Source: Escherichia coli
GTDB lineage: Bacteria; Pseudomonadota; Gammaproteobacteria; Enterobacterales; Enterobacteriaceae
Reading direction: 5' to 3' (one strand)
Length of the DNA stretch: 64,000 nt
Assembly (NCBI RefSeq): GCF_003018255.1
Contig: NZ_CP027440.1
The position numbers and the translations under genes were made by a program. The notes beneath the pieces were generated by a model. It did no database searches and had not been told where the DNA came from. It saw only the letters and a program-made list of their open reading frames with translations. This document shows, piece after piece, positions 11,924 to 62,005 of this stretch (position 1 is its first letter; each line of letters begins with the position of its first letter).

Positions 11924-13309
11924 ATGGCAGATAACAAACCAGAGCTACAGCGTGGGCTGGAAGCTCGACATATCGAACTCATCGCCCTGGGGGGCACCAT
12001 TGGCGTCGGCCTGTTTATGGGGGCCGCCAGTACCCTGAAATGGGCCGGGCCATCCGTATTGTTGGCCTATATCATCGCCGGGCTGTTCGTCTTTTTCATC
12101 ATGCGTTCAATGGGCGAAATGTTATTCCTCGAACCGGTTACCGGTTCGTTCGCCGTTTATGCGCATCGCTATATGAGCCCGTTCTTTGGCTATCTCACCG
12201 CCTGGTCTTACTGGTTTATGTGGATGGCGGTGGGGATCTCAGAAATCACCGCCATTGGCGTTTATGTCCAGTTCTGGTTCCCGGAGATGGCGCAGTGGAT
12301 ACCCGCATTGATCGCGGTGGCGCTGGTGGCGCTGGCGAATCTGGCGGCGGTGCGGTTGTACGGCGAAATCGAATTCTGGTTCGCGATGATCAAAGTCACT
12401 ACGATTATCGTGATGATTGTCATTGGCCTGGGCGTGATTTTCTTTGGTTTTGGCAATGGCGGGCAGTCGATTGGTTTTAGCAATCTCACAGAGCATGGCG
12501 GTTTCTTTGCGGGTGGCTGGAAAGGGTTCCTGACCGCATTGTGTATTGTGGTGGCGTCCTACCAGGGCGTGGAGCTGATTGGCATTACTGCCGGTGAAGC
12601 GAAGAATCCGCAGGTGACGCTGCGCAGTGCCGTAGGCAAAGTGTTGTGGCGTATCCTGATTTTCTACGTAGGCGCGATTTTCGTTATCGTCACCATCTTC
12701 CCGTGGAATGAAATAGGCAGTAACGGCAGCCCGTTCGTACTGACTTTCGCCAAAATCGGCATTACCGCAGCGGCGGGCATTATCAACTTTGTGGTGCTGA
12801 CGGCTGCGCTCTCTGGCTGTAACAGCGGCATGTACAGTTGCGGACGTATGCTCTACGCATTGGCGAAAAACCGTCAGTTACCGACGGCGATGGCGAAAGT
12901 TTCCCGTCACGGCGTACCGGTTGCGGGTGTGGCAGTATCTATTGCTATCCTGTTAATTGGCTCATGCCTGAACTACATCATTCCCAATCCGCAGCGTGTG
13001 TTTGTCTACGTCTACAGTGCCAGCGTGCTTCCGGGGATGGTGCCATGGTTTGTGATATTGATTAGCCAGCTGCGTTTTCGTCGTGCGCATAAAGCGGCAA
13101 TTGCCAGCCATCCGTTCCGCTCAATCCTGTTCCCGTGGGCCAACTACGTAACAATGGCATTCCTGATTTGCGTTTTGATCGGCATGTACTTTAATGAAGA
13201 TACGCGTATGTCGCTGTTTGTCGGCATCATCTTTATGCTGACGGTGACGGCGATTTATAAAGTTTTTGGGCTTAATCGCCACGGTAAAGCGCATAAACTG
13301 GAGAAATAA
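11924..13309 (+). CDS. yifK: APC-family amino acid permease (threonine/serine transporter)
   Basis: 461 aa with 12 predicted TM segments; amino acid permease N-terminus; K-12 synteny between ECA cluster and argX tRNA operon. Confidence 0.85.
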
Positions 13310-13361
13310 GCAGCAAAGCGCACAAACCGTAACCAAACGCGCAATTTATTTAAAAAGGGAC

Positions 13362-30218: not shown

Positions 30219-31111
30219 CCGATTTACACACCGATGTAGAACGCTACCTACGTTATCTGAGCGTGGAGCGTCAGCTTAGCCCGATAACCCTACTTAACTA
30301 TCAGCGTCAGCTTGAGGCGATCATCAATTTTGCCAGTGAAAACGGCCTGCAAAGCTGGCAGCAATGTGATGTGACGATGGTGCGCAATTTCGCTGTACGC
30401 AGCCGCCGTAAAGGGCTGGGAGCTGCAAGTCTGGCGTTACGGCTTTCTGCGCTACGTAGCTTTTTTGACTGGCTGGTCAGCCAGAACGAACTCAAAGCCA
30501 ACCCGGCGAAAGGTGTTTCGGCACCGAAAGCGCCGCGTCATCTGCCGAAAAACATCGACGTCGATGATATGAATCGGCTGCTGGATATTGATATCAACGA
30601 TCCCCTCGCCGTGCGCGATCGGGCAATGCTGGAAGTGATGTACGGCGCGGGTCTGCGTCTTTCCGAACTGGTGGGGCTCGATATCAAACACCTCGACCTG
30701 GAGTCCGGCGAAGTGTGGGTGATGGGAAAAGGCAGCAAAGAGCGCCGCCTGCCGATTGGTCGCAACGCTGTGGCGTGGATTGAGCACTGGCTTGATTTGC
30801 GCGACCTGTTTGGTAGCGAAGACGACGCGCTTTTTCTGTCGAAACTGGGCAAGCGTATCTCCGCGCGTAATGTGCAGAAACGCTTTGCCGAATGGGGCAT
30901 CAAACAAGGGCTGAATAATCACGTTCACCCGCATAAATTACGTCACTCGTTCGCTACGCATATGCTGGAGTCGAGCGGCGATCTTCGTGGTGTGCAGGAG
31001 CTGCTGGGTCATGCCAACCTCTCCACCACGCAAATCTATACTCATCTTGATTTTCAACACCTTGCCTCGGTGTACGATGCGGCGCATCCACGCGCCAAAC
31101 GGGGGAAATAA
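30215..31111 (+). CDS. xerC: tyrosine recombinase XerC
   Basis: 298 aa; C-terminal catalytic signature [15 protein letters not shown]...[15 protein letters not shown] (R-H-R-Y tyrosine recombinase). Confidence 0.9.
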
Positions 31112-31827
31112 TGCGTTTTTACCGGCCTTTGGGGCGCATCTCGGCGCTCACCTTTGACCTGGATGATACCCTTTACGATAACCGTCCGGTGATTTTGCGC
31201 ACCGAGCGAGAGGCGCTTACCTTTGTGCAAAATTATCATCCGGCGCTGCGCAGCTTCCAGAATGAAGATCTGCAACGCCTGCGCCAGGCGGTACGGGAAG
31301 CGGAACCCGAGATTTATCACGACGTGACGCGCTGGCGTTTTCGTTCGATTGAACAAGCCATGCTCGACGCCGGGCTGAGTGCCGAAGAAGCCAGTGCAGG
31401 CGCACACGCAGCAATGATCAACTTTGCCAAATGGCGCAGCCGAATCGATGTCCCGCAGCAAACCCACGACACCTTAAAACAGCTGGCGAAGAAATGGCCG
31501 CTGGTGGCGATCACCAACGGTAACGCCCAGCCGGAGCTGTTTGGTTTAGGGGATTATTTTGAGTTTGTGTTGCGCGCTGGCCCGCACGGGCGCTCAAAAC
31601 CGTTCAGCGATATGTACTTCCTGGCGGCGGAAAAACTCAACGTGCCGATCGGCGAGATCTTACATGTTGGGGACGATCTCACCACTGACGTGGGTGGGGC
31701 AATTCGCAGCGGAATGCAGGCCTGTTGGATCAGACCGGAAAATGGCGATCTGATGCAAACCTGGGACAGCCGTTTACTGCCGCATCTGGAAATTTCCCGG
31801 TTGGCATCTCTGACCTCGCTGATATAA
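31111..31827 (+). CDS. yigB: HAD-family phosphatase YigB
   Basis: 238 aa; HAD motif [10 protein letters not shown] near N-terminus; operon position after xerC. Confidence 0.85.
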
Positions 31828-31836
31828 TCAGCAAAT

Positions 31837-31852
31837 CTGTATATATACCCAG
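31837..31852 (+). promoter_or_regulatory. LexA (SOS) box of uvrD
   Basis: CTGTATATATACCCAG fits the CTGT-N8-ACAG consensus and lies about 60 bp upstream of the uvrD ATG. Confidence 0.8.
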
Positions 31853-31910
31853 CTTTTTGGCGGAGGGCGTTGCGCTTCTCCGCCCAACCTATTTTTACGC
31901 GGCGGTGCCA

Positions 31911-34073
31911 ATGGACGTTTCTTACCTGCTCGACAGCCTTAATGACAAACAGCGCGAAGCGGTGGCCGCGCCACGCAGCAACCTTCTGGTGCTGGCGGGC
32001 GCGGGCAGTGGTAAGACGCGCGTACTGGTGCATCGTATCGCCTGGCTGATGAGCGTGGAAAACTGCTCGCCATACTCGATTATGGCGGTGACGTTTACCA
32101 ACAAAGCGGCGGCGGAGATGCGTCATCGTATCGGGCAACTGATGGGCACCAGCCAGGGCGGCATGTGGGTCGGCACCTTCCACGGGCTGGCGCACCGTCT
32201 GCTGCGTGCGCACCATATGGACGCCAATCTGCCGCAGGATTTTCAGATCCTCGACAGCGAGGACCAGCTACGCCTGCTCAAACGCCTAATCAAGGCGATG
32301 AACCTCGACGAGAAGCAGTGGCCGCCGCGCCAGGCAATGTGGTACATCAACAGCCAGAAAGATGAAGGCCTGCGTCCACATCATATTCAAAGCTACGGTA
32401 ATCCGGTGGAGCAGACCTGGCAGAAGGTGTATCAGGCGTATCAGGAAGCGTGTGACCGCGCGGGCCTGGTGGACTTCGCCGAGCTGCTGCTACGTGCTCA
32501 CGAGTTGTGGCTTAACAAGCCGCATATCCTTCAGCACTATCGCGAACGGTTTACCAATATCCTGGTGGATGAATTCCAGGATACCAACAACATTCAGTAT
32601 GCGTGGATCCGCCTGCTGGCGGGCGATACCGGCAAAGTGATGATCGTTGGCGATGACGACCAGTCAATCTACGGCTGGCGTGGGGCGCAGGTCGAGAATA
32701 TTCAGCGTTTCCTCAATGATTTCCCCGGTGCTGAAACTATCCGTCTGGAGCAGAACTACCGCTCTACCAGCAATATTCTGAGCGCCGCTAACGCCCTGAT
32801 TGAAAACAATAACGGGCGTCTGGGTAAAAAACTGTGGACCGATGGCGCGGACGGTGAGCCTATTTCCCTCTATTGCGCTTTTAACGAACTCGACGAAGCG
32901 CGTTTTGTGGTTAACCGTATCAAGACCTGGCAGGACAATGGCGGGGCGCTTGCCGAGTGCGCCATTCTCTACCGCAGCAACGCCCAGTCGCGTGTACTGG
33001 AAGAAGCACTGTTGCAGGCGAGTATGCCGTACCGTATTTACGGCGGGATGCGCTTCTTCGAACGCCAGGAAATCAAAGATGCGCTCTCGTATCTGCGCCT
33101 GATTGCCAACCGTAATGACGACGCGGCGTTTGAGCGCGTGGTGAATACACCAACGCGGGGTATTGGTGACCGGACGCTGGACGTGGTACGTCAGACATCG
33201 CGCGATCGCCAGTTAACACTCTGGCAGGCATGTCGTGAACTGTTGCAGGAAAAAGCCCTCGCCGGACGTGCTGCCAGTGCCTTACAGCGGTTTATGGAAC
33301 TGATCGACGCCTTAGCGCAGGAAACTGCCGATATGCCGCTGCATGTACAGACTGACCGGGTAATTAAAGACTCCGGCCTGCGCACAATGTACGAGCAGGA
33401 GAAAGGCGAAAAAGGCCAGACGCGTATCGAAAACTTAGAGGAACTGGTAACGGCGACGCGCCAGTTCAGCTACAACGAAGAAGACGAAGATTTAATGCCG
33501 CTGCAGGCGTTCCTCTCCCATGCGGCACTGGAAGCGGGCGAGGGGCAGGCGGATACCTGGCAGGATGCGGTGCAGTTGATGACGCTACACTCGGCGAAAG
33601 GTCTGGAATTCCCGCAGGTGTTTATCGTTGGTATGGAAGAGGGCATGTTCCCAAGCCAGATGTCGCTGGATGAAGGCGGGCGTCTGGAAGAAGAACGCCG
33701 TCTGGCCTACGTTGGCGTAACCCGCGCGATGCAGAAACTGACGCTGACCTACGCGGAAACCCGCCGTCTATATGGCAAAGAGGTTTACCATCGCCCGTCG
33801 CGCTTTATCGGTGAGTTGCCGGAAGAGTGTGTGGAAGAGGTGCGCCTGCGCGCCACGGTAAGCCGCCCGGTCAGCCATCAACGGATGGGGACGCCGATGG
33901 TCGAGAACGACAGCGGCTACAAGCTCGGCCAGCGCGTACGCCACGCTAAGTTTGGTGAAGGCACCATCGTCAATATGGAAGGCAGCGGTGAGCATAGCCG
34001 TTTGCAGGTGGCGTTCCAGGGCCAGGGTATTAAATGGCTGGTGGCGGCTTACGCCCGGTTGGAGACGGTGTGA
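31911..34073 (+). CDS. uvrD: DNA helicase II
   Basis: ORF track extends to 31725, but ATG at 31911 (MDVSYLLDSLNDKQREAV) gives the expected 720 aa; Walker A GAGSGKTRV; UvrD/Rep helicase motifs. Confidence 0.9.
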   Translation: MDVSYLLDSLNDKQREAVAAPRSNLLVLAGAGSGKTRVLVHRIAWLMSVENCSPYSIMAVTFTNKAAAEMRHRIGQLMGTSQGGMWVGTFHGLAHRLLRAHHMDANLPQDFQILDSEDQLRLLKRLIKAMNLDEKQWPPRQAMWYINSQKDEGLRPHHIQSYGNPVEQTWQKVYQAYQEACDRAGLVDFAELLLRAHELWLNKPHILQHYRERFTNILVDEFQDTNNIQYAWIRLLAGDTGKVMIVGDDDQSIYGWRGAQVENIQRFLNDFPGAETIRLEQNYRSTSNILSAANALIENNNGRLGKKLWTDGADGEPISLYCAFNELDEARFVVNRIKTWQDNGGALAECAILYRSNAQSRVLEEALLQASMPYRIYGGMRFFERQEIKDALSYLRLIANRNDDAAFERVVNTPTRGIGDRTLDVVRQTSRDRQLTLWQACRELLQEKALAGRAASALQRFMELIDALAQETADMPLHVQTDRVIKDSGLRTMYEQEKGEKGQTRIENLEELVTATRQFSYNEEDEDLMPLQAFLSHAALEAGEGQADTWQDAVQLMTLHSAKGLEFPQVFIVGMEEGMFPSQMSLDEGGRLEEERRLAYVGVTRAMQKLTLTYAETRRLYGKEVYHRPSRFIGELPEECVEEVRLRATVSRPVSHQRMGTPMVENDSGYKLGQRVRHAKFGEGTIVNMEGSGEHSRLQVAFQGQGIKWLVAAYARLETV

Positions 34074-52658: not shown

Positions 52659-53049
52659 CCTTGAAAAACCTTTTGTTAATTCTTTTGTGAAAGAAAAATA
52701 GTATTGTTATTTTTTACCTTTATTTACGCCCAAAAGGGATGAACTAAAATGTGAAAAACAAAATGTTTCACTTTAATATCTTTTTATCAGGAAGGTCTGA
52801 GATAATTTATAATTAATGTGAATGTGTTGATAATAATTAATGTTTGTTTGAGAATGGGAGTTGATGGTAAATCTCTAAGGTGTCTGCCAGTGAAGAGACT
52901 CATTTATGACTATGACTTGCCGACTTTCTTAAGGTCAAATAGCGGAGTCGTGCTCTCCAATCAATTCATACTGATTATTTTTTGGGGGACAGAGATGGCA
53001 GCAAAATGCACTCGTTCACTCACCATCTCAAATATAGACTAAGAGGAAA

Positions 53050-59593: not shown

Positions 59594-60361
59594 TTATTTA
59601 TCTTTGCGGACGTGCTTACCCCAGCCCAGTTCAGCGGATATCTCTTCTGCACAGGATTTGACGTAAGGTGCCAGTTCTTCCAGACGCGCCAGCGACATAT
59701 ACGTGGTGGTACTGGCGACAGAAATAGCCGCCACAATTTCATCCCGGGCGTTGTAAACCGGCGCTGCAACGCAACGGATAGTCGGCTCGTTCTCTTCCAG
59801 ATCAAAAGCAAAACCACTGGCGGCATAACGACGCATGTTCTGAATAAATGCGCCCAGTTTTGTTTCATCACCACAGGTCTTAAACAGCGTGCGCCACTCT
59901 TCTTCTGTTCGGTTGAGGATCAATGCCTTGCCGATGCCGGTGATTGCCAGTGGCATGCGATGGCCTGGGCGTGAGCGCATTTCCAGCCCGCGCTGACTGT
60001 TGATCTTCTCCAGATACAGCACTTCGTCGCCTTCAACGATCCCCAGATGCACGGTGTCCAGGGTGTAACGGGCAAGGCGTTGCAAAACGGGCTGGGCAAT
60101 TTCGTACAGTGAGGTGCTTTCCAGTGCTCTGGCACCGAATTCGATCAGTTTGGCACCCAGTTGGTAGCCCTGCGTTGGGACATGGCGCAGGTAGCGTTGT
60201 TCCACCAGAACGGTGACTAAACGATGGGTTGTGCTCCGGGTCGTGCCGGTGAACTCGCCGATACTTTTTAGGTCATGGCAGCCGTTATAAACAGCATTAA
60301 GAACCGCCAGTCCACGTAATAACGTTTGTGCGCCTGCGGTGGTTGAAGAGGTTTCTGCCAT
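59594..60361 (-). CDS. IclR/KdgR-family transcriptional regulator
   Basis: ORF track starts at 60535; ATG at 60361 with AGGAG SD (MAETSSTTAGAQTLLRGLAVLNAV) gives ~255 aa; N-terminal winged HTH and C-terminal effector domain laid out as in KdgR. Confidence 0.7.
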   Translation of the reverse strand: MAETSSTTAGAQTLLRGLAVLNAVYNGCHDLKSIGEFTGTTRSTTHRLVTVLVEQRYLRHVPTQGYQLGAKLIEFGARALESTSLYEIAQPVLQRLARYTLDTVHLGIVEGDEVLYLEKINSQRGLEMRSRPGHRMPLAITGIGKALILNRTEEEWRTLFKTCGDETKLGAFIQNMRRYAASGFAFDLEENEPTIRCVAAPVYNARDEIVAAISVASTTTYMSLARLEELAPYVKSCAEEISAELGWGKHVRKDK

Positions 60362-60422
60362 ACGTTTCTCCTGATGATATTGCTGAAGTGTTCCACATAA
60401 TGACGTGGGGAAAAGGTGATAT

Positions 60423-60458
60423 ATCCCACAATATAAACTCCATCTCATATTGTGGGAT
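60423..60458. promoter_or_regulatory. perfect inverted repeat, candidate operator of the IclR-family regulator
   Basis: ATCCCACAATAT-N12-ATATTGTGGGAT, 12-bp perfect arms, 60-100 bp upstream of the regulator start and about 120 bp upstream of rmuC. Confidence 0.4.
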
Positions 60459-60577
60459 AAAATAATGAAAATTAACGATCGTTTTGCGTAGCGCCTCGCA
60501 GGAAATGCCTTTCCAACTGGACGTTTGTACAGCACAATTCTATTTTGTGCGGGTAAGTTGTTGCGTCAGGAGGCGTT

Positions 60578-62005
60578 GTGGATTTCTCAATCATGGTTTA
60601 CGCAGTTATTGCATTGGTGGGTGTGGCAATTGGCTGGCTGTTTGCCAGTTATCAACATGCGCAGCAAAAAGCCGAGCAATTAGCTGAACGTGAAGAGATG
60701 GTCGCGGAGTTAAGCGCGGCAAAACAACAAATTACTCAAAGCGAGCACTGGCGCGCTGAGTGCGAGTTACTCAATAACGAAGTGCGCAGCCTGCAAAGTA
60801 TTAACACCTCTCTGGAGGCCGATCTGCGTGAAGTAACCACGCGGATGGAAGCCGCACAGCAACATGCTGACGATAAAATTCGCCAGATGATCAACAGCGA
60901 GCAGCGCCTCAGTGAGCAGTTTGAAAACCTCGCCAACCGTATTTTTGAGCACAGCAATCGCCGGGTTGATGAGCAAAACCGTCAGAGTCTGAACAGCCTG
61001 TTGTCGCCGCTACGTGAACAACTGGACGGTTTCCGCCGTCAGGTTCAGGACAGCTTCGGTAAAGAAGCACAGGAACGTCATACCCTGACCCACGAAATTC
61101 GCAATCTCCAGCAGCTCAACGCGCAAATGGCTCAGGAGGCGATCAACCTGACGCGCGCGCTGAAAGGCGACAATAAAACCCAGGGCAACTGGGGCGAGGT
61201 GGTATTGACGCGGGTGCTGGAGGCTTCCGGTCTGCGTGAAGGGTATGAATATGAAACTCAGGTCAGCATCGAAAATGACGCCCGCTCGCGGATGCAGCCG
61301 GATGTCATCGTGCGGTTGCCGCAGGGAAAAGATGTGGTGATCGACGCCAAAATGACGCTGGTCGCCTATGAACGCTATTTCAACGCCGAAGATGACTACA
61401 CCCGCGAAAGCGCGCTACAGGAACATATCGCGTCGGTGCGTAACCATATCCGTTTGCTGGGACGCAAAGATTATCAACAGCTGCCGGGGCTGCGAACCCT
61501 GGATTACGTGCTGATGTTTATTCCCGTTGAACCCGCTTTTTTACTGGCGCTTGACCGCCAGCCGGAGCTGATCACCGAAGCGTTGAAAAACAATATCATG
61601 CTGGTTAGCCCGACTACGCTGCTGGTGGCGCTGCGCACTATCGCCAACCTGTGGCGTTATGAGCATCAAAGCCGCAACGCCCAGCAAATCGCCGATCGTG
61701 CCAGCAAGCTGTACGACAAGATGCGTTTGTTCGTCGATGACATGTCAGCGATTGGTCAAAGTCTCGACAAAGCGCAGGATAACTACCGCCAGGCAATGAA
61801 AAAACTCTCTTCAGGTCGCGGAAATGTGCTGGCGCAGGCAGAAGCGTTTCGCGGTTTAGGGGTAGAAATTAAACGCGAGATTAATCCTGATTTGGCTGAA
61901 CAGGCGGTGAGCCAGGATGAAGAGTATCGACTGCGGTCGGTTCCGGAGCAGCCGAATGATGAAGCTTATCAACGCGATGATGAATATAATCAGCAGTCGC
62001 GCTAG
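60578..62005 (+). CDS. rmuC: DNA recombination protein RmuC
   Basis: 475 aa; N-terminal TM then long coiled-coil and RmuC domain; synteny upstream of ubiE. Confidence 0.85.
   Translation: MDFSIMVYAVIALVGVAIGWLFASYQHAQQKAEQLAEREEMVAELSAAKQQITQSEHWRAECELLNNEVRSLQSINTSLEADLREVTTRMEAAQQHADDKIRQMINSEQRLSEQFENLANRIFEHSNRRVDEQNRQSLNSLLSPLREQLDGFRRQVQDSFGKEAQERHTLTHEIRNLQQLNAQMAQEAINLTRALKGDNKTQGNWGEVVLTRVLEASGLREGYEYETQVSIENDARSRMQPDVIVRLPQGKDVVIDAKMTLVAYERYFNAEDDYTRESALQEHIASVRNHIRLLGRKDYQQLPGLRTLDYVLMFIPVEPAFLLALDRQPELITEALKNNIMLVSPTTLLVALRTIANLWRYEHQSRNAQQIADRASKLYDKMRLFVDDMSAIGQSLDKAQDNYRQAMKKLSSGRGNVLAQAEAFRGLGVEIKREINPDLAEQAVSQDEEYRLRSVPEQPNDEAYQRDDEYNQQSR

Follow-up and report, generated by a model that had tools for sequence, protein, structure and literature searches.

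The LexA operator of uvrD in an Escherichia coli chromosome segment: sequence, promoter geometry and conservation across species

The 20-mer ATCTGTATATATACCCAGCT at 31835-31854, with its 16-bp core at 31837-31852, is almost certainly the LexA operator (SOS box) of Escherichia coli uvrD. This assignment, which carries no strand, is supported by the sequence of the site, its position, its identity with K-12, its motif score, the match to a promoter and its conservation across species. LexA control, damage inducibility and attenuation of uvrD are taken from the literature, and the presumed binding of LexA at the box likewise rests on published work, namely on inclusion in SOS-regulon lists (PMC6590174, PMC3009722).

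The window, as the whole 64-kb stretch of DNA that was analysed is called here, is an ordinary segment of the E. coli chromosome, and the SOS operator of uvrD is already known, indeed a textbook case. The finding itself is not new and touches no open question. The analysis serves as an annotation check, which identifies the window as E. coli chromosome and places the uvrD start at 31911 and an SOS operator in the yigB-uvrD gap. A small general point did emerge from the survey of species: the operator keeps its place with respect to the promoter, and the leader is evolutionarily fluid. Because the operator is fixed to the promoter and not to the ATG, operators are poorly validated by their distance to the ATG.

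The yigB-uvrD gap, the promoter and the start codon

The sequence, the list of open reading frames and a comparison with K-12 identified the window as E. coli chromosome and placed the SOS box in the 83-nt gap between two genes on the + strand. The upstream gene is yigB (31111-31827), as given by the sequence, the open reading frame list and the annotations of K-12 and strain E2865. The downstream gene is uvrD (31911-34073), encoding the 720-residue DNA helicase II, as given by the K-12 annotation, alignment to PDB 2IS1 and the open reading frame list. In K-12 MG1655 the genes run in the order dapF-yigA-xerC-yigB-uvrD. The last base of yigB is 3997899 and the first of uvrD is 3997983, an offset of 84 nt that is the same as that from 31827 to 31911 in the window. 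When the interval 31780-31930 was compared with MG1655, all 151 bp, comprising the promoter, the box, the leader and the start codon, were 100% identical, base for base. The comparison with K-12 proposed along with the original prediction thus found both the sequence and the spacing to the annotated uvrD start unchanged. One among the most divergent E. coli matches was also the same at every base of this interval, and strain E2865 was 100% identical to the window across 31650-32050. Of 5426 complete E. coli genomes, 5425 matched a 401-nt query around the site, in every case between yigB and a gene annotated as "uvrD: DNA helicase II", and in 5405 of these 5425 the 65-mer containing promoter and box was at least 99% identical.

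A consensus scan predicted a sigma-70 promoter for uvrD on the + strand, with the -35 hexamer TTGGCA at 31801-31806, which is conserved in Enterobacteriaceae, and the likewise conserved extended -10 element TGaTATAAT at 31820-31828 (hexamer 31823-31828). The arrangement TTGGCA-16-TGaTATAAT matches the consensus at 11 of 12 positions and carries a TG before the -10, making it a near-consensus extended -10 promoter, and the pair is the only sigma-70-like match of the scan in 31500-32100. Among the matches listed, 102 of 119 species have GATATAAT upstream of the box. The -10 hexamer includes the TAA stop of yigB (31825-31827) and the -35 falls within the last yigB codons, so that conservation of the promoter and conservation of the coding sequence are inseparable. 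The CTG of the box begins 8 nt past the TATAAT hexamer. Transcription would start near 31834-31836, at the edge of the 20-mer, a position predicted from the promoter; with the CTG 8 nt after the -10, the stretch under LexA would be about +1 to +20 of the transcript.

The box had also been taken to confirm that uvrD starts at 31911 and not at the beginning of a longer six-frame open reading frame. The start proved to be right on the strength of the K-12 annotation, the UvrD structures and upstream stop codons, but the box alone does not establish it. The longer frame begins with a TTG at 31725 and overlaps yigB (31111-31827) in another frame, and a transcript starting near 31835 cannot contain this codon. 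The in-frame TTG at 31857 and GTG at 31905 lie downstream of the predicted transcription start, so the box and promoter exclude only 31725. The annotated K-12 start maps to 31911. Residues 1-680 of the 720-residue frame that begins there align to residues 1-680 of chain A of PDB 2IS1, "DNA helicase II", and in the crystallised UvrD chains of 2IS1 and 3LFU residue 1 is residue 1 of this frame. A Shine-Dalgarno-like GGCGGT (31901-31906, + strand), seen in the sequence and in orthologues, is placed 4 nt upstream of the ATG; among the matches listed, ggcggtgcca directly precedes the ATG in most enterobacterial orthologues, and 32 of 119 other species have an in-frame stop in the 30 nt that precede the conserved ATG. 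The correct uvrD start is the ATG at 31911, although the sequence by itself would also allow the in-frame GTG at 31905.

Motif score and conservation of the operator

The core CTGTATATATACCCAG was found at 31837-31852 on the + strand and occurs only once in the window, even when three mismatches are allowed. It agrees with the 16-bp CTG-(TA)5-CAG at 14 of 16 positions, and the original prediction of an SOS box that fits the LexA consensus at this very site is borne out. The 20-mer agrees with the longer LexA consensus TACTG(TA)5CAGTA, quoted in PMC6590174, at 14 of 20 positions and departs from it at 6; uvrD is included in the E. coli SOS regulon listed in the same paper. The site had further been said to match a remembered uvrD operator, and the same sequence is indeed in print: the LexA motif upstream of UV-induced uvrD is given as AAATCTGTATATATACCCAGCTTTT in a study using UV-response tiling arrays (PMC3009722, Tables 4 and 7), and this 25-mer is identical to 31833-31857 of the window.

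The LexA sites in Table 4 of PMC3009722 other than uvrD, 17 in number, were used to build a symmetrised position weight matrix. On this leave-one-out matrix the uvrD box scored 16.1 bits and was the best site of the 64 kb, the outcome of a matrix scan that had been suggested as a check on the prediction. The other tabulated operators scored 13.3-29.0 bits on the same matrix, a range that includes the uvrD box. An HI-like index, calculated with an 18-site matrix from PMC3009722 that includes uvrD and not comparable with published HI values, was 5.66 for the uvrD box, rank 11 of 18.

The possibility was considered that the site is a chance match, an A/T-rich near-palindrome close to a promoter that resembles the LexA consensus and is not used by LexA. 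The six mismatches to the 20-bp consensus are in keeping with this, as is the finding that 5.5% of random Markov sequences of 64 kb contain a site of 16.1 bits or more. The frame CTG-N10-CAG is also common, with 23 occurrences in the window against an expectation of 13.9 +/- 3.8, a number reached in 2 of 100 shuffles; the bare frame was for this reason dropped as evidence for an operator. The excess probably arises because the common codons CTG (Leu) and CAG (Gln) occur in phase, which dinucleotide shuffles do not preserve. The uvrD site is the sole occurrence in the window with an all-A/T-rich spacer. Taken alone, a score of 16.1 bits is only moderately significant window-wide, and it is decisive only together with position and conservation. 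As to position, the top-scoring site of the window sits in the 83-nt gap directly before the SOS-listed gene uvrD; by arithmetic from the Markov simulation, the chance of a 16.1-bit site is about 9e-7 per position and roughly 6e-5 for this gap.

Conservation was evaluated in a species scan with one genome per species, anchored on the uvrD N-terminus MDVSYLLDxLNDKQ. The scan covered at least 120 loci, mostly from Enterobacteriaceae together with Rheinheimera, Alishewanella and one vibrio relative. Among the matches listed, 119 loci had 200 nt of upstream sequence, and a box was called at a matrix score of at least 9 bits. Such a LexA-like box was present within 200 nt upstream of uvrD at 116 of these 119 loci (97.5%), compared with 0.6% of control 200-nt windows from the same loci (n=4864), and an exact CTG-N10-CAG was found at 102 of the 119. 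When 99 distinct enterobacterial sequences, also among the matches listed, were aligned on the box, positions 4-7 (TGTA), 9 and 11 (A, A) and 16-18 (CAG) were invariant (2.0 bits), and the core pattern TGTA.A.A....CAG was unchanged throughout. The neighbouring sequence has drifted, the 30 nt downstream of the box having a mean of 0.19 bits per column, that is, being unconserved. As judged from these alignments, the uvrD box is a clean phylogenetic footprint with a LexA-specific pattern. A chance resemblance is exceedingly improbable in the face of the position of the site, the invariance of the LexA-specific positions and the recurrence of the box across species.

The same conservation might be attributed to some other function, such that the element would be mainly part of the promoter or of the initial transcribed region, or the site of another regulator, with LexA playing a minor role; TATATA, for example, could act as a second -10-like hexamer. 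The TATATATA core does resemble -10 hexamers and is located at the predicted transcription start, and basal heterogeneity of uvrD expression in Salmonella has been reported to be independent of LexA and RecA (PMC8072944). However, the invariant bases are the outer TG...CAG triplets at the spacing of LexA half-sites, whereas the inner A/T positions on which a -10 element would depend are variable, those at 10 and 12-15 being mainly A/T in the centre and A/C near the right half-site in the 99 sequences among the matches listed. The sole promoter-like match in 31500-32100 is moreover the upstream TTGGCA/TATAAT pair, and uvrD is damage-inducible (PMC8072944, PMC3009722, PMC5999292), which makes a primarily promoter-related role very unlikely and leaves the LexA operator as the preferred reading of the site.

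The spacing of the LexA operator was also compared across the 99 enterobacterial sequences among the matches listed. TATAAT and CTG were 8-13 nt apart in 94 of the 99, with a spacing of 11 nt in 69 and of 8 nt in E. coli. Between box and ATG the distance was anywhere from 12 to 158 nt, with 42 distinct values. The combination of a fixed promoter spacing and a variable distance to the ATG indicates that it is the promoter, and not the start codon, to which the operator is tied. From the sequences compared, the distance to the start codon appears not to be the relevant invariant, whereas that to the -10 is nearly fixed across genera. A broader scheme can be sketched tentatively, and with more doubt than confidence, for the Enterobacteriaceae. 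The promoter and operator would form a module locked to the 3' end of yigB, with the stop codon in the -10 and the box 8-13 nt on, and the leader would turn over rapidly (12-158 nt, with unrelated hairpins or REP-like inserts by genus), making the attenuation layer lineage-specific and the LexA layer fixed.

Variant boxes and other LexA-like sites

Several variants of the uvrD box were encountered in the species scan. The left half-site is TTG instead of CTG (TATTGTATAAAT...) in 14 of the 99 distinct enterobacterial sequences among the matches listed, and the right CAG is invariant; the loci with a TTG left half-site include L012, L017, L031, L049, L056, L059 and L066. In Rheinheimera and Alishewanella the best box upstream of uvrD is AACTGGTTAT(A/T)TATCCACTA, a candidate identified from sequence in which CAC replaces CAG (loci L004, L013, L026, L033-L035, L041, L051, L083, L085, L090, L100, L105 and L118). 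It is located upstream of a TTGGCG...TATAAT promoter-like pair and not downstream of the -10, so that the geometry of operator and promoter differs in these genera and the use of the box by LexA is putative. A contig labelled "Chryseobacterium sp. 18061" (L103) contains a yigB-promoter-box-uvrD region of the Enterobacteriaceae type and is probably from a mislabelled or contaminated assembly.

The matrix scan returned two further LexA-like sites in the window. The second-best match, AACTGGACGTTTGTACAGCA at 60515-60534, scored 14.55 bits and ends 43 nt upstream of the GTG at 60578 that starts rmuC (yigN). We take this sequence upstream of rmuC to be the published yigN box. A full-text literature search for the sequence of the rmuC box found none that prints it among the papers covered. 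The gene rmuC is listed as an SOS gene (PMC6590174), and the Salmonella yigN box has been placed 44 bp from the ATG (PMC8072944). In this part of the window an IclR-family regulator and a 2-dehydro-3-deoxygalactonokinase gene are found upstream of rmuC in place of udp. The region 60300-60900 was covered to at least 80% in only 1456 of 5425 E. coli genomes and is for that reason regarded as a strain-variable insertion. Away from uvrD, the window and strain E2865 are not collinear at about 59594-60535 and 52740-52930. The third-best match, AACTGGAGAAATAAGCAGCA at 13296-13315, scored 13.8 bits and overlaps the stop of thrP (open reading frame 11924-13309), with a tRNA cluster following closely. 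Since chance alone would give scores of this size in 64 kb, the site is probably not an operator.

The leader, the damage response and comparison with known operators

Downstream of the box, the uvrD leader contains a G+C-rich hairpin, GGCGGAGGGCGTTGCGCTTCTCCGCC (31859-31884, + strand), which is a candidate attenuator stem with a predicted RNA folding energy of -17.1 kcal/mol for the hairpin alone. A T run, TTTTT (31892-31896, + strand), follows 7 nt past the hairpin. Judged by sequence, the two would make up a non-canonical intrinsic-terminator-like site, possibly one that also terminates transcription of the upstream dapF-yigA-xerC-yigB genes. A terminator scan made no call at 31859-31896, because the T run begins 7 nt, that is, more than 2 nt, after the stem, and an Rfam scan of 31600-32100 (E <= 1) gave no match. 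Apart from the local hairpin the folding of the leader is unremarkable, with z = 0.38 for 31835-31915 and z = -1.8 for 31855-31910. Control of uvrD by attenuation is stated in the title of Easton & Kushner 1983, and a leader attenuator is a plausible candidate reported in the literature.

Among the matches listed were 97 distinct leaders 30 nt or more in length, and 84 of them had a hairpin of -8 kcal/mol or lower, often with unrelated sequence, a raw count made without a null distribution. Other genera have unrelated hairpins or REP-like sequences at the leader position. In an alignment of 11 leaders from Escherichia, Citrobacter and Trabulsiella, 85% of cells were paired and one pair differed at both of its bases (G-C to U-A). 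In this alignment, where the 3' arm of Trabulsiella is one base out of register, the covariation measures do not exceed those of shuffles.

It is well established for the SOS system that LexA occludes initiation and that RecA-stimulated autocleavage relieves this block. A steric mechanism of this kind may be proposed for the uvrD promoter. A LexA dimer, each monomer of which would occupy one CTG/CAG half-site, would sit over about +1 to +20 and lower initiation by RNA polymerase in undamaged cells; upon DNA damage, RecA would stimulate self-cleavage of LexA, the promoter would be freed and uvrD transcription would rise. Repression would be only partial, because a strong promoter is paired with a box in which 6 of 20 positions are off consensus, leaving a housekeeping basal level of uvrD and making it an early, modestly induced SOS gene. 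Transcripts would next cross the G+C-rich hairpin and the T run in the 76-nt leader, which could act as a second, LexA-independent control before the ATG at 31911. In published experiments with a uvrD promoter-GFP fusion, expression was UV-inducible, peaked 35-38 min after UV and was classed among the "early" SOS promoters (PMC5999292). Salmonella uvrD has one LexA box and was induced 13.9-fold by nalidixic acid, and the LexA- and RecA-independent heterogeneity of its basal expression (PMC8072944) fits a weak operator rather than tight repression.

The window shows no difference from the K-12 uvrD operator, having the same 151 bp, the same printed 25-mer and the same 84-nt yigB-uvrD offset. 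The LexA operator of E. coli K-12 uvrD was reportedly described by Easton and Kushner in 1983, and it is tabulated in later SOS-regulon surveys. In Salmonella enterica, uvrD likewise is a damage-induced gene with a single upstream box, but the box is 105 bp from the ATG (HI 11.48; PMC8072944) compared with 56-58 nt in E. coli. This greater distance fits the variable leader length of 12-158 nt, and it is in keeping with the TTCTGTATAAAATTCCAGGG-type boxes of Citrobacter and Pseudocitrobacter relatives, for which d = 107-119.

Among other E. coli operators, the dinG box has a TTG left half-site, as do the 14 of 99 enterobacterial uvrD boxes described above. The boxes of sulA, umuD, sbmC, recN and dinD are, like that of uvrD, palindromes of the CTGT-N8-ACAG type that overlie or adjoin the promoter. 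However, these boxes score 23-29 bits, whereas the uvrD box scores 16.1 bits, and the right half-site of uvrD is CCCAGCT where theirs is TACAGTA. The lower score and the CCCAGCT half-site fit a weaker operator and the "early", dose-insensitive timing of uvrD (PMC5999292).
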